Notes under the pieces: generated by a model
Told to the model about the DNA's origin: nothing
Databases searched by the model: none
What the model saw: only the letters and a program-made list of their open reading frames with translations
Assembly (NCBI GenBank): GCA_016177465.1
Contig: JACOVF010000072.1
Coordinates: 3,083-67,082 of the forward strand
DNA: 64,000 nucleotides
DNA from: Gemmatimonadota bacterium
GTDB taxonomy: Bacteria > Gemmatimonadota > Gemmatimonadetes > Gemmatimonadales > GWC2-71-9
Direction: 5' to 3'
Shown: positions 7,451 to 53,588 of the stretch, piece by piece
How positions within the stretch are numbered: the first letter of the stretch is position 1
How the letters are laid out: the number at the start of each line of letters is the position of its first letter
Position numbers and translations under genes: made by a program

Positions 7451-8377
7451 ATGGGAGAAGCGCCCACGACCACCTACCACGTGCCGGTGCTGGCCGACGC
7501 GGTGCGCGCCTGGGCGACCGGGAGTCGGCGCGCCGTGGATGCCACGGTGGGTGGCGGCGGTCACGCCGCCCTCTTGCGGGCCGCGGGCGCGGAGCTGCTG
7601 GTGATCGACCGCGACCCGGTGGCGATCGCTGTGGCGCGTGCGCGCCTTGGGGACGAGGGCGTCCGCTATGTGACGGCGCCGTTCGCCGCTGCGGCGGCCC
7701 TGGCCGCCGCGCGCGCCTTCCGGCCGGATCGGATCCTCCTCGACCTCGGCGTCTCCTCCCACCAGCTCGATGACGCCGAGCGCGGGTTTACCTTTCGGGA
7801 GGGCGCGCCGCTCGACATGCGGATGACCCCGGGGCAGGGGCCGAGCGCGGCCGACGTGCTGAACTCGTGGCCGGAGGAGCGGCTGGCTGCGGCGTTCCGG
7901 GACTGGGCGGACGAGCCGCGGGGGCGTGCGCTGGCGCGTACGGTGCTCCGGCGGCGGTTGCGCGAGCCGTTCCTCGTGAGCGACGACTTCGTGAACGCGA
8001 TCCGGGAGACGCTGGGGCCCCGCTCGGGCCCGTCCGACTTCGCGCGCCTCTTCCAGGCGCTGCGCATCGCCGTGAACGCGGAGCTCGACCAGCTCGCCGC
8101 GGCGCTTCCTGCGCTGCGCGACGCCCTGGTTCCCGGCGGCCGCATCGGCGTGATCACCTATCACTCGGGGGAGGACCGGGTCGTAAAGCACACCTTCCGC
8201 GAGTGGGGCCAGACGTGCATCTGCCCGCCGCGCCAGCCGGTGTGCACCTGCCGCGGTCGCGCGCTGGGGCGCGTGCTCACGAAGAAAGCGATCCGGCCCG
8301 ATCCAGCGGAGACCGCGGCCAACTCGCGGGCGCGCTCGGCGCAGTTCCGGATCTTCGAGGTGGCGCATGGCGCTTAA
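7451..8377 (+). CDS. rsmH: 16S rRNA (cytosine1402-N4)-methyltransferase RsmH (MraW)
   Basis: Track ORF 7322..8377 overlaps the tRNA, so ATG 7451 chosen (MGEAPTTTYHVPVL...); motifs HVPVL, DATVGGGGHA, DLGVSSHQLD, SGEDRVVK. Confidence 0.9.
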   Translation: MGEAPTTTYHVPVLADAVRAWATGSRRAVDATVGGGGHAALLRAAGAELLVIDRDPVAIAVARARLGDEGVRYVTAPFAAAAALAAARAFRPDRILLDLGVSSHQLDDAERGFTFREGAPLDMRMTPGQGPSAADVLNSWPEERLAAAFRDWADEPRGRALARTVLRRRLREPFLVSDDFVNAIRETLGPRSGPSDFARLFQALRIAVNAELDQLAAALPALRDALVPGGRIGVITYHSGEDRVVKHTFREWGQTCICPPRQPVCTCRGRALGRVLTKKAIRPDPAETAANSRARSAQFRIFEVAHGA

Positions 8378-8655: not shown

Positions 8656-10584
8656 ATGGCGAAGCCCGTCGTCCGCTTGCAGGTGGTCCAGGCATTGATG
8701 TTCGCAGGGCTTGCCGCGCTCGTGGGCCGGGCGGCGCAGGTCCAGCTCGTGCGGGGGGCGCGTTATGCCGCGGAGGCACAGGCCCAGCGCACCCAGCGGG
8801 TCGTCTTGGAGGCGCGGCGGGGGACGCTGTACGATCGTCACGGCACGCCGATCGCGCTCACCCAGGAGACGTATCACGTCGGGGTCGCGCCGAACGAGCT
8901 GCGCGACCCGGTGCGCGACGGCCGGCTCATCATGCGCCAGCTGCGCCTCACCCTCCGGCGGTGGGAGCACGGCCTGCGCAAGCGGTATGCGTACTTCCAG
9001 GGCCCGTACAGCGCGCTCGAGATCCACCCGCTCCGCGCGGTACAAGGCGTGCACCTCGAGCCTGTGCTCAACCGGTTCTACCCGTCGCCCGACTTCGCCC
9101 GCGCGGTCATCGGCCGGGTGGGCGCGGACGGGCGCGGCGCCTCGGGGCTCGAGCGCACCCTCGACAGCCTGCTAGCCGGAACGCCGGGAGCGGCGGTCGT
9201 GCTGCGCGACCGTGCGGGCCTGGAATACGAGTCGCCCGCGCGGCTTATCGCCGGGCCGGTCGCGGGGCACGACGTCGTGCTCACCCTCGACGCCGAGTTG
9301 CAGGAGATCGCGCAGCGCGCGCTCGATGAGGCGTTACGCCGCATGGACGCGGAGGGCGGGGACGTACTGATGCTCGACCCGGTCTCCGGGGAGGTGCTCG
9401 CCGTCGCCGCGCGGCATGACGACGGCGGCGCCCGCCCCAGCGCCTTCAGCGACGTGTTCGAGCCCGGCTCCACCGCCAAGATCTTCGCCGCGGCGGCGTT
9501 GCTCACGGGGAACCTGGTACGCCCCGACGAGCGGGTCTCGGGCGAGGGAGGCAAGTACCGGCTGGCCAGCCGTACCATCGAGGACGAACACCCGCTGCCG
9601 ACGCTCACCCTCGCGGACGCGATCCGCGTCTCCAGCAACATCGCGTTGGTCAAGTTCGCCGCCCGCCTCGCTCCGGAGGAGCAGTACAGGATCTTACGCG
9701 ACTTCGGCTTCGGCGCGCCCACGGGGATCGAGTTCCCGGCCGAGTCGCCGGGGCGGCTGCGCTTTCCGAAGGACTGGACCCGCCCCAGCGCGGCGAGCCT
9801 CGCGATGGGCTACGAGCTGTCGGTGACGCCGCTGCAACTCGCCGTCGCGTACGCCGCGCTCGGGAACGAGGGTGTCTTGCTCCAGCCGTCCCTGCTGCGC
9901 GAGATCCGCACCCCGGATGGGAAGGTGATCTACCGGCATCGTCCCGAGCCGGTCCGGCGCGTCGTGCCGCCCGAGGTGGCGGCGCAGCTGCGCGACCTCC
10001 TGCTCGGTGTGGTCGAAGGTGGCACCGGCGCCGAGGCGGCCCTCACCACCTTCCCGCTCGCAGCCAAGACCGGCACCGCGCGCCGCGTGGTCGATGGCCG
10101 CTACGCCCCGGGACAGTACACCGCGTCGTTCGCGGCGCTGTTCCCGGCCGACCAGCCCCAGCTCGTCGTGGTCGTGAAGATCGACAGCCCGCGGAGGGGC
10201 AGCTTTTTCGCCGCCCAGACGGCGGCGCCGGTGACCCGCTCGATGCTCGAGCAGGCGCTCGCGGCGCGCACCGTGGCGCTCGACCGCGCCCGGCTCTCGA
10301 CCAGCGTCCCGGCGCCCGAGTCCGCGCCGCTGAAAGGCGACGGCGGCGTGGTACCCTACGTCGTGGGCTGGCCCTACCGGCCCGACAGCGCCGCCACGGG
10401 CCCCGAGCGCGCCGTGCCGGACGTCGGCGGCCGCCCGATCCGCGAGGCGGTACATGCACTGCACCGGCGCGGCTTCCGCGTGGTGCTGAAGGGCTGGGGC
10501 GCGGTCGATCACACTTGGCCCGCGGCGGGGGAACGCGCCCGCGCAGGCTCGACGGTGACGCTGTTCGCGACGGATCGTCCATGA
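8656..10584 (+). CDS. ftsI: penicillin-binding protein / peptidoglycan transpeptidase FtsI with C-terminal PASTA-like domain
   Basis: 642 aa; SxxK (PGSTAKIF), SxN (VSSNIA), KTG (AKTGTA) motifs; C-terminal VPDVGGRPIREAVHALHRRGFRVVL resembles PASTA. Confidence 0.9.
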   Translation: MAKPVVRLQVVQALMFAGLAALVGRAAQVQLVRGARYAAEAQAQRTQRVVLEARRGTLYDRHGTPIALTQETYHVGVAPNELRDPVRDGRLIMRQLRLTLRRWEHGLRKRYAYFQGPYSALEIHPLRAVQGVHLEPVLNRFYPSPDFARAVIGRVGADGRGASGLERTLDSLLAGTPGAAVVLRDRAGLEYESPARLIAGPVAGHDVVLTLDAELQEIAQRALDEALRRMDAEGGDVLMLDPVSGEVLAVAARHDDGGARPSAFSDVFEPGSTAKIFAAAALLTGNLVRPDERVSGEGGKYRLASRTIEDEHPLPTLTLADAIRVSSNIALVKFAARLAPEEQYRILRDFGFGAPTGIEFPAESPGRLRFPKDWTRPSAASLAMGYELSVTPLQLAVAYAALGNEGVLLQPSLLREIRTPDGKVIYRHRPEPVRRVVPPEVAAQLRDLLLGVVEGGTGAEAALTTFPLAAKTGTARRVVDGRYAPGQYTASFAALFPADQPQLVVVVKIDSPRRGSFFAAQTAAPVTRSMLEQALAARTVALDRARLSTSVPAPESAPLKGDGGVVPYVVGWPYRPDSAATGPERAVPDVGGRPIREAVHALHRRGFRVVLKGWGAVDHTWPAAGERARAGSTVTLFATDRP

Positions 10585-43947: not shown

Positions 43948-45494
<1,547 letters not shown>

Positions 45495-45635
45495 TGAATC
45501 CCGGGGATGCGACTGCACAGGGAACGAGACTGCGCGCGTCGCGGTCTCCGCAGTCATCTACCCGCACGTATTTGTGCCGAGGCGGGTTCGGGGTCCGGAG
45601 TCCTGCCGACAGCCTGTAGGGGGCGCGAGCGTAAC

Positions 45636-45660
45636 TAGACAGCGCCCGGCTCGCTGTCTA
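45636..45660. other. perfect 9-bp hairpin TAGACAGCG-N7-CGCTGTCTA at the left edge of the island
   Basis: Seen directly; flanked by GCGTAAC (45629) and followed 86 nt later by GTTAGCC (45746-45752), a GTTRRRY-like box just before the first cassette. Confidence 0.4.
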
Positions 45661-45769
45661 AACCACAGGCGGCGGGGTGGAGAACGCGGATTAGATGGCA
45701 GGAACGGCTCGCAGTCTGTGCTTTCGACTGGTCAATCCAATTCACGTTAGCCGAACGACCCGGGCATCG

Positions 45770-45778
45770 TGTTATATT
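45770..45778 (+). promoter_or_regulatory. extended -10 promoter TGTTATATT for the TA cassette (leaderless-type)
   Basis: TGT-TATATT at 45770-45778; ATG 45789 lies about 10 nt downstream with no SD. Confidence 0.4.
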
Positions 45779-45788
45779 GACGGCAGCT

Positions 45789-45989
45789 ATGAGCAAGATC
45801 GAGTCGCTTGAACGCGAGATTCGCAAACTCTCTTCCGAGGAACTGTCTCAGTTCCGCCGGTGGTTTGCGGCATTCGACGCCGCCGTCTGGGATCGGCAGC
45901 TGGAAGCGGATGCCGCAGCGGGGAAGCTTGACGCCCTGGCGGACGCCGCGCTCGCGGATCATCAGGCAGGCCGTTCGCGCAAGCTTTGA
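45789..45989 (+). CDS. type II antitoxin-like protein
   Basis: 66 aa from ATG 45789 (track start TTG 45777); MSKIESLEREIRKLSSEELSQFRRWFAAFDAAVWDRQLEADAAAGKLDAL, a pattern I associate with antitoxins paired with RelE/ParE-superfamily toxins; stop overlaps the toxin start (TTTGA). Confidence 0.65.
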   Translation: MSKIESLEREIRKLSSEELSQFRRWFAAFDAAVWDRQLEADAAAGKLDALADAALADHQAGRSRKL

Positions 45990-46239
45990 ACCACTATGCG
46001 GCGCCGAGCTTCTGGAAATGCTATGAGGCTCTGCCAGAAGCCATTCGGACTCTCGCCGACAAGCAGTTTGAGCTTATCAAGACCAATCCCCGCCATCCAT
46101 CACTCCACTTCAAACGGATTGGTCGCTTTCACTCAGCCGGTGTTGGGCACACTACCGGGCGCTCGCCGTAGACGCCCAGGACGGGGTACTGTGGTTCTGG
46201 ATAGGCACACATGCGGAGTACGATCGCGTCGTCGGCTAA
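45986..46239 (+). pseudogene. RelE/ParE-superfamily-like toxin, frameshifted
   Basis: Frame 1 reads ...LPEAIRTLADKQFELIKTNPRHPSLHFKRIGRFHSAGVGH then stops at 46171; shifting the frame around 46150-46156 continues YRALAVDAQDGVLWFWIGTHAEYDRVVG to TAA 46237-46239. Confidence 0.6.
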
Positions 46240-46371
46240 CCAGCGGCTGAAGCTGGCGCCGCCCGGCCTTGGCAGAATTCCGTTTGTGCCCCAACGTAGA
46301 GCTGTGCTCACTCCATCCTTGCGGCTCGCCCGCCCTATGAGGCGGCGCAGCTTAGCCGCGATCCGTTAGGC
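46234..46371 (+). repeat. attC-like site 1 (138 nt)
   Basis: R'' GGCTAAC 46234-46240, R' GTTAGGC 46365-46371; hand pairing GCGGCT/AGCCGC, AAGCTG/CAGCTT, CGCCGCC/GGCGGCG with unpaired G at 46249 and 46256. Confidence 0.65.
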
Positions 46372-46422
46372 GTCGCTGATTAACGCGAGTCTTGAGGTTG
46401 AGGAGCTAAGGGAGGCGCGATC

Positions 46423-47250
46423 ATGTCAAACACAATGCAGAGCCAGCTTGGTTCGGTGGTTGGCCTGTGGCGCTATCCTGTCAAGTCAATGATGGGAGAG
46501 GAGCTAAACGCCGCCCACGTTACGGAACGCGGGCTGCTCGGGGATCGCGCGTACGCGCTTGTCGACCCGTCCAATGGGAAAGTTGCCAGCGCCAAGAACC
46601 CGCGGAAATGGGCGAAGCTCTTCGATTGCCGGGCCGCCTTTGCCGGGTCCCCGCGCCTTGGCGAGAAGATACCTCCAGCCCGGATCACCCTTCCGGACGG
46701 AACCATCGTCACCAGTGAGCAGAGTGACGTCACGCAAATCCTGTCGAAGGTGTTTGGTCGGGAGGTGACCCTTGAGACCACGGCGCCCCAGACGCCCAGC
46801 CTCGAGGAGTACTGGCCGGACATGGAGGGCCTGGCCCACAGGGAAACGACCACCGATGAGACTATGCCGGCCGGCACATTCTTCGATCTGGCCGTCATCC
46901 ATGTGTTGACGACTGCCACGATCGACCGGCTTCGGGAGCTCTATCCGCAAGGGCGCGTCGAGGTGCGGCGGTTTCGTCCTAACATAGTGGTAGAGGTTGC
47001 CTCCGGCGAGAAAGATTTCGTTGAAAACGCTTGGGTTGGCCACACGCTGGCCATCGGGAACGAGCTTCGCCTGAATATCAGTGGCCCCTGCCCCCGCTGC
47101 GTGATGACGACCCTGCCGCAGGGGGACCTCCCAAAGGACCCGGGGATCTTGCGTACGGCGGCCCACCATAACCAAGTCAACGTCGGTGTTTATGCCGCTG
47201 TGGTCCGGGGCGGCGCGATCCGCCGCGGTGATCCGGTCAGGATCGATTAG
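46423..47250 (+). CDS. MOSC domain-containing protein (YcbX-like)
   Basis: 275 aa; LWRYPVKSMMGEEL N-terminal beta-barrel and C-terminal ...GPCPRCVMTT MOSC cysteine motif; GGGAGG 8 nt upstream. Confidence 0.8.
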   Translation: MSNTMQSQLGSVVGLWRYPVKSMMGEELNAAHVTERGLLGDRAYALVDPSNGKVASAKNPRKWAKLFDCRAAFAGSPRLGEKIPPARITLPDGTIVTSEQSDVTQILSKVFGREVTLETTAPQTPSLEEYWPDMEGLAHRETTTDETMPAGTFFDLAVIHVLTTATIDRLRELYPQGRVEVRRFRPNIVVEVASGEKDFVENAWVGHTLAIGNELRLNISGPCPRCVMTTLPQGDLPKDPGILRTAAHHNQVNVGVYAAVVRGGAIRRGDPVRID

Positions 47251-47279
47251 CCTGACCAAGTCGACGTTGACGACGCGAC

Positions 47280-47512
47280 GCCTAACCAGCGCAGAGGCTG
47301 TGTGAAAACGCCACCTTGGCAGAAGTGGCAGCGCGCAAAATCAACGACTTAAGGGTGCTCAGAACCAGGTTTTCGCACAGGCTCCGCATGGAGCTGGCGG
47401 CGCCGTGTTCTGATGGAAGCGTTATGTTGTTCGCCAACGACCCTGCGGTGATGGCTGGGCGCACGGTGCGCCAGCGAGCTCGGCGTCGCAGCTCATGCGC
47501 GATTCGTTAGGC
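47280..47512 (+). repeat. attC-like site 2 (233 nt, atypically long)
   Basis: R'' GCCTAAC 47280-47286 and R' GTTAGGC 47506-47512 (7/7 complementary); GCGCA/TGCGC and GAG-CTG/CAGCTC inner stems; same CA vs GATTC spacer asymmetry as site 1. Confidence 0.55.
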
Positions 47513-47550
47513 AGCGCAGGCGAGTCTTAGGCCTAAACGAGGAAGGCCAC

Positions 47551-47799
47551 ATGGACCCTGCTGTGTTCCTTGTCGCACTCGTAACAGTCGTGGGGACCGC
47601 TGCTTTCACGATTGTCAAGGTTGCTCGTCTGTGGACCACTCGTCCAGAATCACCATCGGTCGACGTCACTGCGCGGGTCGAGGAGCTTGAGCGTAGTGTC
47701 CTGGGCCTCCAACAGGAGTTAGCGGAAACACAGGAGCGGCTCGATTTCGCAGAGCGTTTACTCAGCACCGCACGGGAAGAGCGGCGGATTGGCAGCTAG
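47551..47799 (+). CDS. TM + coiled-coil miniprotein, ERLDFAER family (paralog 1)
   Basis: 82 aa; N-terminal TM (VFLVALVTVVGTAAFTIV), coiled coil, C-terminal ETQERLDFAERLL motif shared with 50237..50584; GAGGAAGG upstream. Confidence 0.7.
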   Translation: MDPAVFLVALVTVVGTAAFTIVKVARLWTTRPESPSVDVTARVEELERSVLGLQQELAETQERLDFAERLLSTAREERRIGS

Positions 47800-47865
47800 A
47801 GACAACTCCGCCGACTTGAGCAACCGGGAACATAGCTGACAGAATGTCCGGGGACATGGTTAACA
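47800..47865 (+). repeat. possible short attC-like site 3
   Basis: AGACAAC 47800 / GAGCAAC 47818 ... GTTAACA 47859-47865; CCGCCGAC vs GTCCGGGG partial pairing; weak. Confidence 0.3.
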
Positions 47866-47982
47866 CTTGTCCTTGAGGGAGAGGGCCCCGGTGATGGTGT
47901 GGGTGTGTTCGTTGAAGCGACCGAGGAGCGTGTCGTAGTAGAGGAGGTTCCAGAGGCCGTCCTTGAAGCGGTCCCGGTTTTC
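47860..47982 (-). pseudogene. orphan C-terminal gene fragment (40 codons) abutting the IS end
   Basis: Reads ENRDRFKDGLWNLLYYDTLLGRFNEHTHTITGALSLKDKC-stop on the minus strand, in frame right up to the IS terminus; the plus-strand reading is antisense-like (EATEERVVVEEVPEAV). Confidence 0.35.
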
Positions 47983-48002
47983 TGGACAGGGGGGCGGCTT
48001 AA

Positions 48003-49279
48003 TCACGCCGCCCGCCGCGTGAGGCTCAAGCGGACGTCGGCCGGGGTCCGGTAGCCGTGCCGCTCGAGCAGCCACGCCTGATTGTAGCGCTCGATGAACT
48101 CTCCGATCACCTGCCGCGCCGCGTCGAGCGTCGCGAAGTCGTGCAGGTACAGACATTCCTCTTTCAGCGTCCGGATCCAGCGCTCCATGATTCCGGTGCA
48201 CTCGGGCTCGCCCACGTAGCTGGGACTCGGCCGGATGCCCAGCCAGCGGAGCTCGCCCAGGAACTGATGCGCCGTGTACTGCGGGCCCCAGTCCATCCGG
48301 AGCCCCAAGCCGAGGGCGATCTTCGGCGCATACTGCCCGTGTGTCCGCTGCACGCCCTGGCGGATCGGCTCGAGCGCCGCCCACCGATCCCCGACCTTGG
48401 CCACGTGCCAGCCCACGATGTCCTCGACACCGTGGTCGATCGCGCCGAAGAACCAGCACCACCCCTCCCGCCGGGTGTAGAACCGCGTCGCGTCCGTCCC
48501 CCACAGCTCATCGGGGCGCGGCGTCGTGATCGTGCCCGCGTGCGCCCGATCCCCGCGCCGATGGCGCCGGCGGGTCGGGGCCAAGAGATTCGCCTGCCGC
48601 ATCAGCCGCAGCACTCGCGCCTTGCCGACCCGGATCCCGCGCGGCCGCAGGCGCGCCCGCACTTTCCGATGCCCCTCGGTGCAGAACCCACTGGCCTTGA
48701 GCACCGCCCGGATCTCGACGAGCAGCGTCGCGTCGTCCAGCGGCGTCCGCGGCCCCCGTTTCGCGGGGGTACCCCGATCCCTCCCCCCGTGGCGATCGTC
48801 GCTCTGCGAGGCGCGCAGTGCGTCGCGGTTGAGACCAGTCTCAGCCAGCCGCCGCGCGTACACCGTCGAGCGCGCCACCCGCCACATCGTGCAGATCATC
48901 GTCACGGGATACCGCTGTCCCGTCGCTGGGCTCACCAGCCGCGCGCCTTCTTCAACCTCGCCAGCTCCTCCCCGTACCCCCTTTTTTCGAGGAGCAGCTC
49001 GACGAGTTCCAACTGCATCGCGAGCTCCCCCACTTTCGCCTGCGCCTGCTTCAGCAACCGGGCTTCGCCCTCCCCATGCCGCTTCTTCAACCCTTCGCCC
49101 CCGGCCTCGAGAAACGTCCGCCGCCAGGCCCCAAGTTCGTGCGCCGGCACCTGGACCTCGCGACTCACGACGTCCACGGCCTCGCCGCGCAACAACCGGA
49201 GCACGATCTCGGTCTTCGCCTTCGCAATCCACCGCTCAGGCAAGTCCGCCGCCTGCTCCCGCTCGCTCACCACCGTCAT
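48003..49279 (-). CDS. IS3 transposase OrfAB (programmed -1 frameshift fusion; OrfB has the DDE/rve core)
   Basis: -1 slip at A AAA AAG joins ...LVELLLEK to KGVRGG...; OrfB has WGTDATRF, LRMDWGPQYTA, GIMERWIRTLKEE (D, D, E regions) and YNQAWLLERHGYRTP tail. Confidence 0.8.
48932..49279 (-). CDS. IS3 transposase OrfA (HTH + leucine zipper)
   Basis: 115 aa; WIAKAKTEIVLRLLRGE...VSREVQVPAHELGAWRRTF HTH, then heptad Leu region; contains AAAAAAG (minus strand of 48981-48987). Confidence 0.85.
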   Translation of the reverse strand: MTVVSEREQAADLPERWIAKAKTEIVLRLLRGEAVDVVSREVQVPAHELGAWRRTFLEAGGEGLKKRHGEGEARLLKQAQAKVGELAMQLELVELLLEKRGYGEELARLKKARGW

Positions 49280-49327
49280 GGCCCTCGCTCCTCGGACCCC
49301 TCAGAGATAGTCCAAATGCCTGTCCAA

Positions 49328-49813
49328 GGAAATCGGGGGCTCTATACCACGGGCTACGCCGACCGCGCCGATTCGACGGTGAGGCGCGACCTTGCATCGG
49401 TCGGGATCCAGGTTCGCGACGCCCCGGGGTACGTCCGGCTCGTCCGGAACTCGCCACACTACGGGGGTAGCGGCGTCTTCAGCACGGTGGAGGATCTGGC
49501 GAAGTGGGACGCCACTTTCGAGACGCACGTGCTCGGCGGACCAGCCTTGGCCGCCCAGATGCTCCAAACGCACCGCTTCGCACACGACAAAGACAACGAC
49601 GCGTTCGGTCTCGTCTTTGAGCGCTTCATGGGTCGTGAGATGATCTGGTTCTCAGGCGGCGACTTGGACGCCTCCACCTTCATGGCCCGCCTGCCCGCGG
49701 AGCGGCTGACCATCATCTGCCTCTCGAACATGCCGAAGGGCGATGCCGAGGGAAGGGCCCAGGCGGTGCTCCGGCTGGTCCTCGAGTCACGGACGACAGA
49801 CCAGGGGCCGTGA
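49328..49813 (+). pseudogene. C-terminal third of a beta-lactamase-family serine hydrolase, 5'-truncated at the IS
   Basis: In-frame part of track ORF 49076..49813 after the IS end: ...NSPHYGGSGVFSTVEDLAKWDATF...ERLTIICLSNM; the N-terminal SxxK-bearing two thirds are absent on both sides of the IS. Confidence 0.6.
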
Positions 49814-49828
49814 TCGGATCGATGGCGC

Positions 49829-49921
49829 GCGCAACGGCGCCTGAAGCTGGCGGCGCCTGCCTTCAAAGGAACCCGTATGTTTGTGCGCCTGGAGAGTGGG
49901 CGCCGCAGCTTTCTGTGAGGC
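49829..49921 (+). repeat. attC-like site 4 (93 nt, degenerate R boxes)
   Basis: GCGCAAC 49829 ... GTGAGGC 49915-49921; AAGCTG-(G)-CGGCGCC pairs with GGCGCCG-CAGCTT(T), homologous to the inner stems of site 1 including the bulged G. Confidence 0.5.
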
Positions 49922-50236
49922 GGCGCACCCTGTCAAGCCCGGCCCCCCGGTCGGGTTTGTCTTTCCTCTGTTGTCGGGCCGCGTGCGGCCCGTTTCAGCT
50001 GGTGCCCTCGAGGTGCCGCTCAGCCTTCTGTACGCGCTCTCGGTGACGAGGCATCCTCGTCGGCGCAAATGGGAATCCGAAAGAGCGGCGGCGCCAACTA
50101 AGCGACGACCTCAGCGGCGGTCATCAGCTGCAACGCGCTCACAGCGAGGAGCCGCGGAGTCCTCGTCTAACCAAGATCGGGAAGGCTTGACAGATTAGAC
50201 CTCATAGAAGGCGGTTGGCGACACTAGGAGGAATAC

Positions 50237-50584
50237 GTGTGGTTCAAGCACCGAGCTTGGATACCTGTCGCGTGGCTCCTCTGTTTCGGGAACCTTATCG
50301 CCGTCTGGTTCGCCGCTCGGCCGGCTGAGCCTTGGCATGCGACAGTCCACGCGCTACTGGCGGTGCTGTTTGGTCTCGGGGCACAACGCCTTGCGCTGGG
50401 GAAAAAACCCACCGCTGACGCAGACGTGGTGGGAAGGTTGGGGGAACTCGAAGCACGGCTTGCCGACCTAGACAAGTTGCAGGACGTGGAAGGCCGACTT
50501 ACCGAGCTAGAGGAGCGCCTCGACTTTACTGAGCGAGCATTGGTGAACGTCCGGACTCGCGCTCAACTTCCGCCCAAAGAGTGA
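50237..50584 (+). CDS. TM + coiled-coil miniprotein, ERLDFTER family (paralog 2)
   Basis: 115 aa; GTG start with AGGAGG 50226-50231; two N-terminal TM helices, coiled coil, LEERLDFTERAL motif. Confidence 0.7.
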   Translation: MWFKHRAWIPVAWLLCFGNLIAVWFAARPAEPWHATVHALLAVLFGLGAQRLALGKKPTADADVVGRLGELEARLADLDKLQDVEGRLTELEERLDFTERALVNVRTRAQLPPKE

Positions 50585-50624
50585 ACGGTGCATTGCGGTG
50601 GGGTGAGCAACCGGGGCGCGGTGG

Positions 50625-50768
50625 GGCGGTGTACCGCCCGCTGGGTGTCTGGCCGTCGAGGGCGGCGTGCGGCCGCTCGTCATTGTACAGCGCCCGAAAG
50701 CGATTGAAGGCGCGCTGCCAGGCGGCGAGGGTGGCTCCCAATGCCCACACGATTTCCTGAAGCGCCAT
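50625..50768 (-). pseudogene. C-terminal scar of an rve-type (IS3/IS481-like) transposase
   Basis: ...AWQRAFNRFRALYNDERPHAALDGQTPSGRY, the conserved YN..RPH..L.G.TP tail of DDE integrase-core transposases; no upstream catalytic part (stops within 30 nt). Confidence 0.5.
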
Positions 50769-50799
50769 ATTCTCTACTCAGCGCGCGACAAGGCTACAG

Positions 50800-51309
50800 G
50801 TGAATAGGCGCTCCCTCGATTCTCAGGCCTTGCTCCAGCGACCCCGCCAAGCCCCGCCAGTGGGGCGCGCACTCCGCATCCTGCTCGGCCTCGCCCTGAC
50901 TGTTCACGTGGTGCCCATTTACCTCCGAGTGGACCTGCCACTTGCCGTCGGGGCCTTGCTGCTGATGCTTGGGTTGATTGGCGTCTACAGCCTGATCCAT
51001 GTCATTGCATCGCGACGCATCGTTGGCTTTGGCCCCGGCCTCGGGGCGGTCGTGGCGCTGGGGTTGCTCGTCGCGCTGTATGTTGCCGGCGCCCCCGGGT
51101 CACCGATCCTTGGTCGCGGAGAGGGTGAGCTGGCGGCAGTCACCTTCCTGAGTATCTCGTTGGTGGTTGCTGGCGTGCGCGCCGATCCCGGTTGCGAGGT
51201 GATGGCAATCCCGGGGGCCCTTTGGGGAACGCACAGCGAACTGGCGTGTCTCGTCTTCTCCCCCCTCGACCGACTTGAGCGCAAGTTGCGGAGCAAGCGC
51301 GCCGCCTGA
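50800..51309 (+). CDS. hypothetical 4-TM membrane protein
   Basis: 169 aa; four hydrophobic helices, C-terminal ADPGCEVMAIPG...ELACLVFSPLD; weak SD, GTG start. Confidence 0.5.
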   Translation: MNRRSLDSQALLQRPRQAPPVGRALRILLGLALTVHVVPIYLRVDLPLAVGALLLMLGLIGVYSLIHVIASRRIVGFGPGLGAVVALGLLVALYVAGAPGSPILGRGEGELAAVTFLSISLVVAGVRADPGCEVMAIPGALWGTHSELACLVFSPLDRLERKLRSKRAA

Positions 51310-51448
51310 TATCAACTTTGAACGCAACACCGAGTCTCAACGGGCATAGCATCCTTGCCGGCGCGAGGCCTGCTGCTCACTCGCCTTGTGCCGGACTTCA
51401 CGGAGTCATAGCTTGGCCATCGCCCACCACATACGCCGGAGACATTCC

Positions 51449-51934
51449 ATGCGCACGTTCACTGCTCCCGCAGCCTTGGTGCTCGGGATCGCCGCGGCGG
51501 CCTGTGGCCGCCAGCCGCCACCAGTTGATCTCGAGGCAGCGCGTGCCTCGCTGCGCACCGCGGACAGCGGATACTCGCAAACGGCATCTGGTAAGAACCT
51601 CGAGGCGTTCGTGGCGCTCTATGAGCCCAGCGCGACCATGTACCCACCCGCAGAGGCGCTTGCTCAAGGCACCGAGGCCATCCGCGCCTTCGCGGGCGCG
51701 TTCCTGAAGGATCCGGCTTTCGCGGTCAGGTTTACCCCGGTAGCCGTGGAAGTTGCGGCCAATGGCGACATGGGCTACACGCTGAATACCGTGGACATCA
51801 CCGTAACCGGTCCTGACGGGAAGCCAGCGACCGAGCGAATTCGCGATTTCCACCTTTGGCGGAAGCAGGCCGACGGCCGCTGGAAGGTTGTGGTCGATAT
51901 CTGGAACGCCGAACCGCCACCGCCTACCAAGTGA
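51449..51934 (+). CDS. NTF2/SnoaL-like (DUF4440-like) lipoprotein
   Basis: ATG 51449 within track ORF 51386..51934; signal + lipobox (LGIAAAAC); ...FVALYEPSATMYPP...DFHLWRKQADGRWKVVVDIWN, typical NTF2-like fold signature. Confidence 0.65.
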   Translation: MRTFTAPAALVLGIAAAACGRQPPPVDLEAARASLRTADSGYSQTASGKNLEAFVALYEPSATMYPPAEALAQGTEAIRAFAGAFLKDPAFAVRFTPVAVEVAANGDMGYTLNTVDITVTGPDGKPATERIRDFHLWRKQADGRWKVVVDIWNAEPPPPTK

Positions 51935-51983
51935 CGTGTGACGCCACTAGCACACCAACCACCCCTCGCTGTGAGGCCCCTCG

Positions 51984-52220
51984 ATGGTCGACACGCTCAC
52001 CCCACCGTACCTACCGCCGATTCCACCTCACCTGCCCGAGGTTCGGGTCCAGCCCCTGCTTGTCTACGTCCAGCCCGTCTGGGAGTACAAACATGTCGTC
52101 GCCCAGATGGCTCCCGACGAGGTTGCACTCAACGCCCTCGGGGCTGAAGGCTGGGAACTCGTCGGCGTGGTCCCTGCGCCTGATGCCATGCACTTCTACT
52201 TGAAACGCTTGGTGCGCTGA
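51984..52220 (+). CDS. DUF4177-like small protein
   Basis: 78 aa; ...LNALGAEGWELVGVVP...FYLKR resembles the GWELV core of DUF4177. Confidence 0.5.
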   Translation: MVDTLTPPYLPPIPPHLPEVRVQPLLVYVQPVWEYKHVVAQMAPDEVALNALGAEGWELVGVVPAPDAMHFYLKRLVR

Positions 52221-52262
52221 GACCGCGAGTCCCGTTGACGAAGCAGCCGCAGGAGGTTGACC

Positions 52263-53588
52263 ATGACACGACGGATCCCCGCGCACGCCGTCTGCCTCGC
52301 CTCGCTCGTGACAGCGGCGCTCGCCGCCCCCGCCACGGCCCAGGACGAGCGGCCGGCCCCCGAGAACCTCGCGGCGCGCACTTGGTTCCAGGACGCGAAG
52401 TTCGGGATGTTCATCCACTGGGGCATCTCCAGCTTGCTGATGGACGGCGAGTGGGTGATGGAGGACCGCCGCATCCGTGCGGCGGACTACGAGCGCATCG
52501 CGTCCTCGTTCACCCCGACGCGGTTCGACGCCACCGCATGGGTCGCCCTCGCGAAGGCGGCCGGGATGCGGTACGTGACCCTGATCACCAAGCATCACGA
52601 CGGCTTCGCGCTCTTCGATTCGCGCGTCACCGACTGGGATGTGATGGACCGCACGCCGTTCCGGCGCGACATCGTGCGGGAGATGGCTGAGGCGTGCCGG
52701 CGCGAAGGGCTTCGCCTGTTCGTCTACTACTCGCAGCTCGACTGGCATCACCCCGACTACTGGCCGCGGGGGCGGACCGGTCGTTACACCGGACGAGCCG
52801 ACCGCGGCGACTTCGGGCGCTACCTGGACTTCATGGACGCACAGCTCACCGAGCTATTCAGCAACTACGGACCGCTCGGCGGGGTGTGGTTCGACGGGAT
52901 GTGGGACCGGCCGGACGCGGAGTGGCGGCTCGAGCGCACCTACCGGATGATCCACGGGCTGCAACCCGGTGCGCTCATCGTTCCGAACCATCACCAGACG
53001 CCGCTCCCCGGCGAGGACGTGCAGACTTTCGAGAAGGACCTTCCGGGTGCCAACACCGCGGGCTGGAACACCACCGCGATCGGCGCGTTGCCGCTCGAGA
53101 CCTCCCAGACCATTAACGACAGCTGGGGCTTCCGCCTGCACGACCGCAACCACAAGAGCGTGAGCCAGCTCGTGCGCGAGCTGGTCGGCGCGGCGGGGCG
53201 AAACGCGAACTACCTGCTGAACATCGGCCCCATGCCGGACGGCTCCATCCAACCCGAGTTCGTGGAGCGCTTGCAGGCAGTGGGGAACTGGATGGCCCGC
53301 TTCGGCGCGAGCATCTACCGCACGCGTGGCGGGCCCGTGCCGCCGCGCCCCTGGGGTGTCACGACCCAGCGAGGCGACACCGTCTACGTCCACGTGCTCG
53401 AATTGACCGACCGGCAGCTCGCCCTGCCGGCCCTGCCGGGGCGCGTGCGGTCGGCGCGGGTGCTGATCGGCGGAAGGACCGTGTGGTTCGCGGACACCCC
53501 CGATGGCGTCACGCTGACGCTCCCGCCGCGCGCCACGGACGAGATCGACCAGGTGATCGCGCTCGTCATCGAGCGGGGAACGCGCTGA
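52263..53588 (+). CDS. alpha-L-fucosidase, GH29
   Basis: AGGAGG 52251-52256 then ATG 52263; signal peptide; WFQDAKFGMFIHWG, ITKHHDGFALFDS motifs. Confidence 0.88.
   Translation: MTRRIPAHAVCLASLVTAALAAPATAQDERPAPENLAARTWFQDAKFGMFIHWGISSLLMDGEWVMEDRRIRAADYERIASSFTPTRFDATAWVALAKAAGMRYVTLITKHHDGFALFDSRVTDWDVMDRTPFRRDIVREMAEACRREGLRLFVYYSQLDWHHPDYWPRGRTGRYTGRADRGDFGRYLDFMDAQLTELFSNYGPLGGVWFDGMWDRPDAEWRLERTYRMIHGLQPGALIVPNHHQTPLPGEDVQTFEKDLPGANTAGWNTTAIGALPLETSQTINDSWGFRLHDRNHKSVSQLVRELVGAAGRNANYLLNIGPMPDGSIQPEFVERLQAVGNWMARFGASIYRTRGGPVPPRPWGVTTQRGDTVYVHVLELTDRQLALPALPGRVRSARVLIGGRTVWFADTPDGVTLTLPPRATDEIDQVIALVIERGTR

Follow-up and report, generated by a model that had tools for sequence, protein, structure and literature searches.

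An integrase-less cassette array beside the methylmalonyl-CoA mutase gene of a Gemmatimonadales bacterium

Described integrons and the locus beside the mutase gene

Clusters of attC sites lacking an integrase (CALINs), described in 2016, are groups of two or more same-strand attC sites, spaced by under 4 kb, that lack an intact intI in the vicinity; the function of most of their cassettes is unknown, and they are accompanied by IS elements (PMC4889954). Origin through integrase loss was proposed in the same study, in which an intI pseudogene was detectable in only 15 of 279 CALINs. The locus described here, part of a 64-kb window (the whole stretch of DNA analysed), has the same properties, and at it this origin is directly visible; it differs in retaining an attI-like site and an integrase remnant (~28 codons) too short for the 50% profile coverage criterion of that study. 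Xanthomonas integrons downstream of ilvD (PMC12444791) resemble the window's group in having one housekeeping-gene anchor across related species and in the lineage-specific inactivation of intI, with stable, eroding arrays. The phylum and the anchor differ, the latter being here the gene for the methylmalonyl-CoA mutase large subunit; moreover, intI is co-oriented with the cassettes in the Gemmatimonadales group, for which an unsupported neighbour-joining tree does not demonstrate vertical inheritance.

Integron-bearing phyla include Gemmatimonadota (PMC8618304). Gemmatirosa kalamazoonensis KBS708, which belongs to the same order as the window lineage, has a complete integron on its plasmid 1 (NZ_CP007129.1); integrons are therefore not new to this lineage, contrary to the original prediction. 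The Gemmatirosa IntI is 61.9% identical to a Gemmatimonadales MAG IntI, and its gene, as in the Gemmatimonadales relatives, lies on the same strand as the attC sites, of which there are at least 20. Its attI ends in GTTAGCC, as does that of the window, and its first L'' bulge is a top-strand G. In contrast to the window, the Gemmatirosa integron has an intact intI, resides on a 1.1-Mb plasmid and has attC sites of ~96 nt with a 3' spacer of canonical length, which score only 27-49 bits with the covariance model (R1) described below. Transcription of intI in the cassette direction also likens the relatives, by orientation alone, to the 'inverted integrase group' (named in PMC3575428), whereas intI is divergent in class 1 integrons; Gemmatimonadales IntI is 53.6% identical to IntI1.

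With high probability, a soil Gemmatimonadales lineage here carries the proximal end of a chromosomal integron in decay, from position 45535 to ~50600. The locus is a ΔintI/attI/cassette array; with intI deleted and attI and cassettes left, it is therefore formally a CALIN. The core of the original prediction, a cassette array without an integrase, is thus supported by independent evidence from related genomes, but of the extent assigned to it (45495-52262) only 45535 to ~50600 is supported, the genes at 50800-52220 having no attC and lying beyond an IS remnant. The predicted fall in GC content after the mutase gene is real (0.61 at 46-48 kb versus ~0.70 for the window); the mutase stop codon (45492-45494), the quoted motifs and three start codons all lie where they were placed, and the SD boxes before the three ORFs are visible in the sequence. 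The features, from left to right, are:

45535-45619, + strand: ΔintI, the last ~28 codons (~85 nt) of intI with one extra base causing a frameshift; TAG stop at 45617-45619
45735-45752, + strand: attI-like simple site (L box ATCCAAT, spacer TCAC, R box GTTAGCC)
45747-46365, + strand: cassette 1, 619 bp, with an antitoxin-like ORF and a ParE-like toxin gene
46234-46371, + strand: attC site 1, 138 nt, intact; matched by R1, folds
46366-47506, + strand: cassette 2, 1141 bp including an insert; bounded by the R' boxes of sites 1 and 2
47280-47512, + strand: attC site 2, interrupted by an insert (R''-CA-GCGCA at 47280-47293, the rest at 47389-47512)
47294-47384, no strand assigned: MITE-like insert, 91 nt, with 16-nt TIRs (14/16 matching)
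47507-47816, + strand: cassette 3, truncated, attC missing; delimited by homologous cassettes and DNA alignment
47817-47983, - strand: putative IS481-like IS remnant, a 52-nt end with two ACCGGGNACAT repeats and ~40 C-terminal transposase codons
47984-49326, - strand: IS3-family insertion sequence (orfA 48932-49279, orfB from 48003; Pfam rve, rve_3, HTH_21, HTH_Tnp_1)
49327-49921, + strand: 3' part of cassette 4, with a serine hydrolase fragment and decayed attC site 4
49922-50603, + strand: probable cassette 5, with a 115-aa protein gene (50237-50584), its own attC apparently replaced by an IS remnant
50604-50770, - strand: second IS remnant, starting with the same 12-mer TGAGCAACCGGG, then a C-terminal rve_3 transposase fragment
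50800-52220, + strand: a compact run of three genes (169-aa membrane protein, DUF4440/SnoaL, DUF4177; Pfam)

attC sites, cassettes and their decay

Covariance model R1, trained only on 13 attC sites that follow bona fide intI genes in related Gemmatimonadales genomes, gave exactly three matches in the 64-kb window, all on the + strand and all within the array locus: 46234-46371 (71.3 bits, E 8.8e-18, versus 8.1 bits on the - strand), 47375-47512 (66 bits, E 2.4e-16) and 49839-49921 (32.3 bits, E 4.2e-7). Behind these, the highest-scoring match reached 13 bits (E 0.08), and R1 found no attC-like site between 49922 and 52262. In a generic scan for R boxes with arm duplexes, site 1 scored -27.2 kcal/mol; shuffled windows gave ~6 weak matches each, counted only at much weaker energy cut-offs. 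The attC signal is far above chance, and the predicted motifs are real integron attC sites.

The 5' side of site 1 consists of R'' GGCTAAC, CAGCG, L'' GCT(G)AAGC and TG(G)CGCCGCC, followed by a 77-nt loop, and the 3' side of GGCGGCGCA, L' GCTTAGC, CGCGATCC and R' GTTAGGC (46365-46371). The original hand pairing (R box 6/7; GCGGCT/AGCCGC, AAGCTG/CAGCTT and CGCCGCC/GGCGGCG), the unpaired G at 46249 and at 46256 and the CA versus GATCC spacer asymmetry are correct. A close homologue of this site, loop included, occurs in metagenome array L161. Site 2 has R'' GCCTAAC (47280) and R' GTTAGGC (47506-47512) as predicted but is not 233 nt long: it is a 138-nt site plus a 91-nt TIR element and a 4-nt duplication, with CGCA at 47290-47293 and 47385-47388 flanking the insert. 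Its R1 score covers the uninterrupted 3' part and the inner 5' arm (47375-47512), and the restored site shows compensatory changes relative to site 1. A search of the window and of 200 loci gave no second copy of the insert. Site 4 (49829-49921) likewise has its predicted boxes in place (GCGCAAC at 49829, GTGAGGC at 49915-49921) and keeps its 5' arm, but it is degenerate, with L' missing and GTG for GTT in R'.

In cassette 1 the 66-aa antitoxin-like ORF (45789-45989) had no match to any family, and the ParE-like toxin gene (45986-46239), which terminates within the R'' box of site 1 (TAA, 46237-46239), is frameshifted near 46150. Even with the frameshift repaired, the toxin matches ParE_like PF24732 at 19.0 bits (E 0.0015, profile 3-67/67), below the 24.4-bit cut-off; of the toxin-antitoxin pair proposed earlier, the toxin is therefore tentative and the antitoxin a candidate. 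Cassette 2 encodes a MOSC-domain protein (46423-47250; Pfam MOSC 64 bits, MOSC_N 43 bits) and cassette 3 an 82-aa membrane and coiled-coil protein (47551-47799), both as intact ORFs. Homologues of cassette 3 (63-84% amino acid identity) are present in seven metagenome arrays; the DNA homology starts exactly at GTTAGGC and stops ~17 nt past the stop codon, where L123 and L116 run on into their own attC. Cassette 4 retains the C-terminal fragment of a beta-lactamase-fold serine hydrolase, extending to 49813 (Pfam Beta-lactamase profile 216-323/329). The 115-aa protein of probable cassette 5, for which R1 found no attC, is a paralogue of the 82-aa protein with the common motif ERLDF(A/T)ER, and a 42% homologue adjoins the mutase gene in L047.

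The putative IS481-like remnant is 85% identical to an IS end in L198, and its transposase match is weak (E 0.056). The ends of the IS3-family element, read from the sequence, are TGGACAGG...CCTGTCCA, with no target duplication. Membership of the genes at 50800-52220 (GC 0.63-0.65) in the array is uncertain; distant homologues lie on cassettes elsewhere (SnoaL, 36% in L148; DUF4177, 50% in L083). Cassette status is supported only to ~50600, not up to the fucosidase gene, and the right-hand boundary is undefined. Downstream, synteny is lost and remnants of IS elements occur, which shows that this side has been rearranged.

The decay bears on whether the array is still at work, a question of present activity and not of origin. 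If the genome encodes an integrase at another locus, this could still serve attI and the intact site 1 in trans, so that cassettes would still be excised and exchanged; the preserved attI-like site, the 71 bits of site 1 and the two intact ORFs are consistent with this, as is the finding that half of all CALINs are in genomes that encode IntI elsewhere (PMC4889954). We nevertheless regard a still-functional array as rather unlikely, given the lack of intI within 64 kb and the decay of three of the four cassettes and two of the three attC sites.

The integrase remnant and the loci of relatives

The ~250 nt upstream of the array, originally taken to hold neither integrase nor attI, in fact contain the last ~28 codons of intI and an attI-like simple site. 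ΔintI aligns at the nucleotide level with the intI 3' ends of seven relatives, tblastn detects GVRSPADSL* at 45572-45616, and in an unbiased blastn search of 1.25 Mb of loci the best non-self match was to the 3'-terminal 56 nt of intI in L033 (78.6% identity, E 1.2e-5). The remnant is short (85 nt), and the 64 kb contain no detectable tyrosine recombinase. The attI-like site lies 129 nt after the stop of the remnant, with its probable crossover at G|TT (45746/45747). Ten intI-bearing loci have a single GTTAGGC or GTTAGCC 112-280 nt past the intI stop, preceded by GTC(G/T)AAT and 4 nt, as in L040 and L163 (GTCGAATTCAC-GTTAGGC) and Gemmatirosa (GTCTAATCCGC-GTTAGCC). The layout of the window site agrees with that of attI, two inverted boxes 4-5 bp apart (PMC12614218).

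The window mutase shares 68-80% identity with its counterparts in Gemmatimonadales MAGs, and upstream synteny with relatives, which extends over more than 10 kb, breaks off exactly at the mutase stop. In nine relatives the mutase gene is closely followed by intI in the same orientation, which is also that of the cassettes, and arrays of GYCTAAC...GTTAGGC sites come after these integrase genes; the integrases of L008 and L007 reach 428 and 433 bits with TIGR02249, whose cut-off is 265. Decay of intI is repeated, being seen in the window, L040 and L003. Because the window mutase falls outside the clade of intI-bearing loci in a neighbour-joining tree without bootstrap, orthology of the insertion through simple vertical descent is not established.

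The original prediction had left open that the array is the distal part of one whose intI lies elsewhere; since an intI remnant and an attI-like site lie at its left end, that option is rejected. It is very improbable, too, that the locus is a translocated piece of a larger array or a set of cassettes at a secondary site: the broken downstream synteny and the IS remnants do point to rearrangement on the right, but on the left the remnant and the attI-like site have the order and spacing of intact relatives, at the same chromosomal position beside the mutase gene. The array is a proximal end, not a distal fragment.

Nature of the repeats and history of the array

In the attC family 97.1% of cells are paired, versus 90.5% in shuffled controls and at most 40% with slid partners, and compensatory changes occur in eight pairs, the window's sites included. 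A small model derived from class 1 sites (R2) failed to pick up the sites of the window; it also missed nearly all sites beside bona fide intI in the same phylum and is therefore without power. Like the class 1 attC of aadA7 (read from pSN254b), the window sites have 7-nt R boxes, R'' and R' fitting RYYYAAC and GTTRRRY, a 5-nt 5' spacer, an extrahelical base after the third L'' base with a second one 7 nt on (6 bp between), and a position at the 3' end of a co-oriented ORF. They differ in a 3' spacer of 8 nt rather than 6, three bases of which can pair with the 5' spacer, in top-strand bulges of G and N, where aadA7 has C and A, and in a loop of 77 nt rather than 5. The least probable reading of all, that the palindromes are non-integron intergenic repeats (REP/BIME-like, terminators or MITEs) with incidental AAC...GTT ends, can appeal to the palindrome richness of high-GC genomes, the ~6 weak scan matches per shuffled window and the silence of the class-1-derived model, but is contradicted by the linkage of the repeats to intI, the same family following intI (TIGR02249) in at least six genomes and in Gemmatirosa, on one strand only and in arrays, bounding units that recur across different arrays, with structure maintained by compensatory changes and its only three window matches at the array locus.

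The intact form, present in the relatives, comprises the mutase gene, intI on the same strand, attI and promoter-less cassettes, each ending in an attC hairpin of ~141 or ~90 nt. From known integron biology we infer that IntI would release a cassette through recombination between two attC sites folded from the bottom strand, and that it would place the cassette into attI at G|TT of GTTAGGC. In this genome a deletion has taken intI, sparing its last ~85 nt and leaving attI with at least four or five cassettes. With no local integrase the array is presumably frozen and inactive at present, and it is eroding: the toxin gene is frameshifted, the MITE-like element lies within attC site 2, cassette 3 has lost its attC and cassette 4 its 5' half through IS insertions and deletions, and site 4 is without its L' and R' boxes. 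The element is of a known kind, and the locus is a genuine but unremarkable CALIN.

attC sites of the array

The locus belongs to an already known class of element, the CALIN: by the test of Cury et al. (2016), three attC sites lie on the + strand, at 46234, 47280 and 49829, and no integron-integrase gene is found near them in the 64 kb. CALINs, and their possible origin by loss of the integrase, were described in 2016 (PMC4889954).

Features of the array and of its left end (window coordinates)
45492-45494, stop codon of the methylmalonyl-CoA mutase large subunit gene (mutase gene), left neighbour of the array
45535-45619, remnant of the integrase gene (intI)
45735-45752, attI-like site, ATCCAAT-TCAC-GTTAGCC, 129 nt past the stop of the remnant
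45747-46365, cassette 1: 66-aa ORF and toxin gene with a 4-nt overlap, the toxin frameshifted near 46150 and its TAA stop inside R''
46234-46371, + strand, attC site 1
46366-47506, cassette 2: MOSC protein
47280-47512, + strand, attC site 2
47294-47384, 91-nt MITE-like element interrupting the L'' stem of attC site 2; its terminal inverted repeats are 16 nt long (14/16 matching), and CGCA stands at both flanks
from 47507, cassette 3: 82-aa membrane and coiled-coil protein (47551-47799)
beside the IS3-family element, IS481-like remnant: 52-nt end common to the IS481-like element of metagenome contig L198, weak match to a transposase C-terminus
47984-49326, IS3-family element with ends TGGACAGG...CCTGTCCA, lacking a target-site duplication (flanks TTC and AGG)
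beyond the IS, cassette 4: hydrolase fragment of beta-lactamase fold (its C-terminal third), with decayed site 4 behind it
49829-49921, + strand, attC site 4
50237-50584, probable cassette 5: 115-aa paralogue of the 82-aa protein, cut about 19 nt past its stop by an IS remnant

A position check confirmed all motif coordinates of the original prediction; its hand pairing of site 1 (GGCTAAC-CA-GCGGCT-G-AAGCTG-G-CGCCGCC ... GGCGGCG-CAGCTT-AGCCGC-GATCC-GTTAGGC) is also correct, and the drop in GC that it reported is real, with a fraction of 0.61 at 46-48 kb against about 0.70 for the window. Sites 1 and 2 are bounded by the inverted R'' and R' boxes of attC sites: GGCTAAC and GTTAGGC in site 1, pairing at 6/7 positions with G at position 2 where RYYYAAC has Y, and GCCTAAC and GTTAGGC in site 2, pairing at 7/7. 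The L boxes of site 1, GCT(G)AAGC (L'') and GCTTAGC (L'), carry the extrahelical base of an attC site, with the second bulge 7 nt beyond the first; both bulges are conserved across an alignment of 34 family members, and the identity of the bases is unlike that in class 1 sites. The central spacers of site 1 are 5 nt (CAGCG) and 8 nt (CGCGATCC) long, and pairing of GCG with CGC is possible, leaving CA versus GATCC unpaired. Loops of 77, 76 and 41 nt give the window's sites a variable terminal structure. Upstream of the sites lie the toxin, MOSC and hydrolase-fragment ORFs, each co-oriented and promoter-less, with its site at the 3' end; cassette homology begins at G|TTAGGC. A consensus scan of 45400-47600 found no sigma-70-like promoter and no terminator, and Rfam gave no family match over 45300-52500.

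Site 2 was originally read as a single attC of 233 nt; its R box stands, but the true site is 138 nt long and is interrupted, directly after GCCTAACCAGCGCA, by the 91-nt element. Without this element and one CGCA, the site is exactly as long as site 1 and shows the same pair of bulged G. The element forms a hairpin of its own, and a search of the window and of 200 related loci revealed no other copy. Site 4 is a decayed attC: the 5' arm is kept, as had been noted, but the L' box is absent, and its boxes, GCGCAAC (R'') and GTGAGGC (R'), depart from RYYYAAC/GTTRRRY.

A covariance model trained only on 13 sites from relatives (R1), with the window's sites excluded, was searched through all 64 kb with filters off, and had three + strand matches: 46234-46371 (71.3 bits, E 9e-18), 47375-47512 (66.0 bits, E 2e-16) and 49839-49921 (32.3 bits, E 4e-7). 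The best match after these had 13 bits (E 0.08), and site 1 read on its minus strand scored 8 bits. In the 34-member alignment, which includes the window's two good sites, 97.1% of cells in the R-L-stem structure are paired, against 90.5 +/- 0.6% in shuffles and at most 40% with slid partners. Compensatory changes occur in eight stem pairs, several of them supplied by the window's sites (GCGGCT/AGCCGC and GCGCAT/ATGCGC versus the consensus GCGCTT/AAGCGC). GTCTAAC...ATTAGAC at 50164-50199, considered as a collapsed attC, was rejected at only 5-6 bits with R1. A second covariance model (R2), for which 11 class 1 sites were used after trimming of the long ones, had no significant match in the window; because it likewise failed to find nearly all of the attC sites next to bona fide intI genes in the same phylum, used as positive controls, its result is uninformative either way. 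A generic scan for R boxes and duplexes served as a lead only, since it returned about six weak matches per shuffled window.

Integrase remnant and mutase locus

The approximately 250 nt upstream, in which the original prediction recognised no tyrosine recombinase, attI or Pc, contain an intI remnant and an attI-like site. Nucleotide alignment with relatives identifies 45535-45619 as the 3'-terminal ~85 nt of intI, carrying a single additional base, and blastn of 45495-45760 against all comparison loci (L-numbers: related Gemmatimonadales genomes and metagenome contigs, of which L001-L080 are mutase-bearing relatives) gave as its best non-self match the last 56 nt of the L033 intI (78.6% identity, E 1.2e-5). 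That no intact integrase is present was upheld by tblastn: across the 64 kb, two IntI queries returned only a 15-residue match, GVRSPADSL*, at 45572-45616; of the intact intI with IntI-specific domain that defines a complete integron, only 45535-45619 is left. Ten intI-bearing loci, including Gemmatirosa, have a single GTTAGGC or GTTAGCC 112-280 nt past the intI stop, immediately ahead of the first cassette ORF and preceded by GTC(G/T)AAT plus four bases. The attI-like site of the window agrees with the published attI layout, in which 4-5 bp separate two inverted boxes bound by the integrase (PMC12614218). The order of intI remnant, attI and cassettes therefore marks the proximal end of the array, and the alternative that this is a distal part of one is not tenable.

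Proteins of Gemmatimonadales MAGs share 68-80% identity with the mutase. Across the 80 loci compared, gene order is conserved for FBPase-mutase and for over 10 kb of genes upstream, and this synteny stops exactly at the mutase stop (45494/45495). A zinc-ribbon gene, argS and pfkB come after the mutase gene in about 27 more distant genomes, and all three are absent from the whole window; the genes on the fucosidase side lie within 10 kb of the mutase gene in no relative examined. Since synteny ends at the mutase stop and the usual neighbours are absent, the integron site coincides with a rearrangement breakpoint.

A generic scan for hairpins bounded by AAC...GTT located, at 2-5 kb past the mutase gene in L007, L008, L011, L016 and L040, arrays of GYCTAAC...GTTAGGC sites that are 138-143 nt long, and a tyrosine recombinase gene lies on the same strand between the mutase gene and those arrays. 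The integron integrase model TIGR02249 (cut-off 265) scores 428 bits at L008:7502-8506 and 433 bits at L007:11920-12993, and tblastn places intI adjoining the mutase gene in nine loci. Elsewhere beside the mutase intI is decaying, with at least three frameshifts at L040:12099-12956 and one at L003:11597-12627. Succession of intI by this attC family is seen in L007, L008, L016, L040, L163, L115, L088 and Gemmatirosa, a linkage at the level of the family and not within the window. A sedentary chromosomal integron would keep one chromosomal position in related species or form a very large array. An integron stands beside the mutase gene in 10 of the 12 informative loci of one mutase clade; a neighbour-joining tree of the mutase (no bootstrap) places the window outside the clade with intI-bearing loci. 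In L011 an attC lies 2 kb away from the mutase gene, and no intI is detectable. The integrase at L008:7502-8506 is 53.6% identical to clinical class 1 IntI1 from a plasmid collection.

Cassettes and insertion sequences

Cassette 1 probably encodes the toxin-antitoxin pair proposed for it. Gene order and overlap fit a type II pair, but the two toxin frames joined match ParE_like PF24732 over the whole profile at 19.0 bits, below the 24.4-bit cut-off, and the 66-aa antitoxin candidate has no family match in Pfam or NCBIfam; because of this score and this unmatched upstream ORF the pair is probable, not proven. NCBIfam yielded nothing useful for the antitoxin, toxin, small membrane proteins or MOSC protein, a PDB sequence search with the toxin gave noise only, and exact-protein look-ups held no record of the MOSC protein or the mutase. 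An attC at L161:630-767 (minus strand) is closely homologous to site 1, loop included; it follows an 82-aa-protein cassette, versus the toxin cassette in the window.

The 82-aa protein of cassette 3 has homologues in seven metagenome arrays (63-84% identical) and is a common cassette in soil arrays. DNA homology of this cassette starts exactly at GTTAGGC and ends about 17 nt past the stop codon; past that point other arrays run into their attC, and the window runs into IS sequence. The 82-aa and 115-aa paralogues are both small membrane and coiled-coil proteins with the common motif ERLDF(A/T)ER.

An IS end (TGAGCAACCGGG, then ACCGGGNACATNGNTRACA repeats) is found in the window at 47817-47867 and 50604-50615, the latter being the remnant that cuts cassette 5 and opens with the same 12-mer as the first, and in L198 at 7505-7556 and 8737-8775; save for the IS end in L198, no further IS copies were found in 200 loci. 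In the window (twice) and in L198, TGAGCAACCGGG lies 4-20 nt upstream of the actual or expected start of the attC R'' box, always in the same orientation, a placement that may, in these three cases only, reflect attC-directed insertion. The IS3-family element has the IS481-like remnant on one side and the truncated hydrolase gene on the other; such neighbours suggest an IS-associated deletion. The original prediction extended the array to 52262, but R1 found no attC in 50800-52220, where the three genes may be DNA joined by IS-mediated rearrangement. Both the IS anatomy of the locus and the right-hand boundary of the array are inferred.

Relation to other integrons and significance

A 26-nt pattern taken from the 3' arm occurs in at least 120 soil metagenome contigs, with up to eight exact copies per contig among the matches listed. 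The window's own array has three attC sites only; by R1, the 13-kb metagenome contig L198 is a continuous array of about 20 sites or more, in two length classes. In Gemmatirosa kalamazoonensis plasmid 1, intI (61.9% identical) is followed by at least 20 same-strand sites of ~96 nt. Classes of ~141 nt and ~90 nt are mixed within the same arrays in L198, L146, L114, L083 and other metagenome loci.

Gemmatimonadota are already listed among the integron-bearing phyla (PMC8618304), and the view that arrays had not been described in this lineage holds only in that no detailed description of Gemmatimonadota integrons was found in the literature searched. A close parallel to the window locus is provided by Xanthomonas, in which integrons are anchored at ilvD and intI has been inactivated repeatedly (PMC12444791).

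Class 1 attC sites were read from real plasmid arrays. The aadA7 attC (GTCTAAC-AATTC-ATT(C)AAGC-CG(A)CGCCGC ... GCTTAAT-TCAAGC-GTTAGAT) has the geometry of site 1, with an R box of 7 nt, a spacer of 5 nt and two bulges, one behind the third L'' base and the other 7 nt beyond it; site 1 differs in its 8-nt 3' spacer (5 and 8 nt, versus 5 and 6 nt in class 1 sites), its bulged bases and its 77-nt loop. Stems of aadA-type attC sites (AAGCCGACGCCGC...GCGGCGCGGCTTAA) resemble those of the Gemmatimonadales attC family.

IntI recombines the folded bottom strand of attC at G|TT: recombination between two attC sites excises a cassette, and recombination of attC with attI inserts one. Here the recombinase gene is gone, and the array would be frozen if the rest of the genome encodes no further intI. 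Relaxed selection on the platform would fit the frameshift, the interruption of attC site 2, the IS-associated deletions and the decayed site 4. It is possible, though rather doubtful, that the window is an eroded copy of a soil Gemmatimonadales integron lineage uncharacterised in detail, marked by a co-oriented intI, clade-wide anchoring at the mutase, an attC architecture of its own (8-nt 3' spacer, C-type first extrahelical base on the bottom strand, two length classes) and cassettes abundant in soil metagenomes, and that attC hairpins may be preferred targets, at or within which the IS ends and the MITE of the window insert.

Knowledge of integron function is unchanged by these findings. 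Gene callers leave such arrays unannotated, and recognition of the array therefore explains a low-GC, IS-ridden island at a synteny breakpoint. The locus is a clear example of the origin of a CALIN, with intI deleted from a complete integron and attI retained. The related loci show that large integrons occur in soil Gemmatimonadales and have a recognisable attC family, which could help to assign soil cassette metagenomes to Gemmatimonadota.
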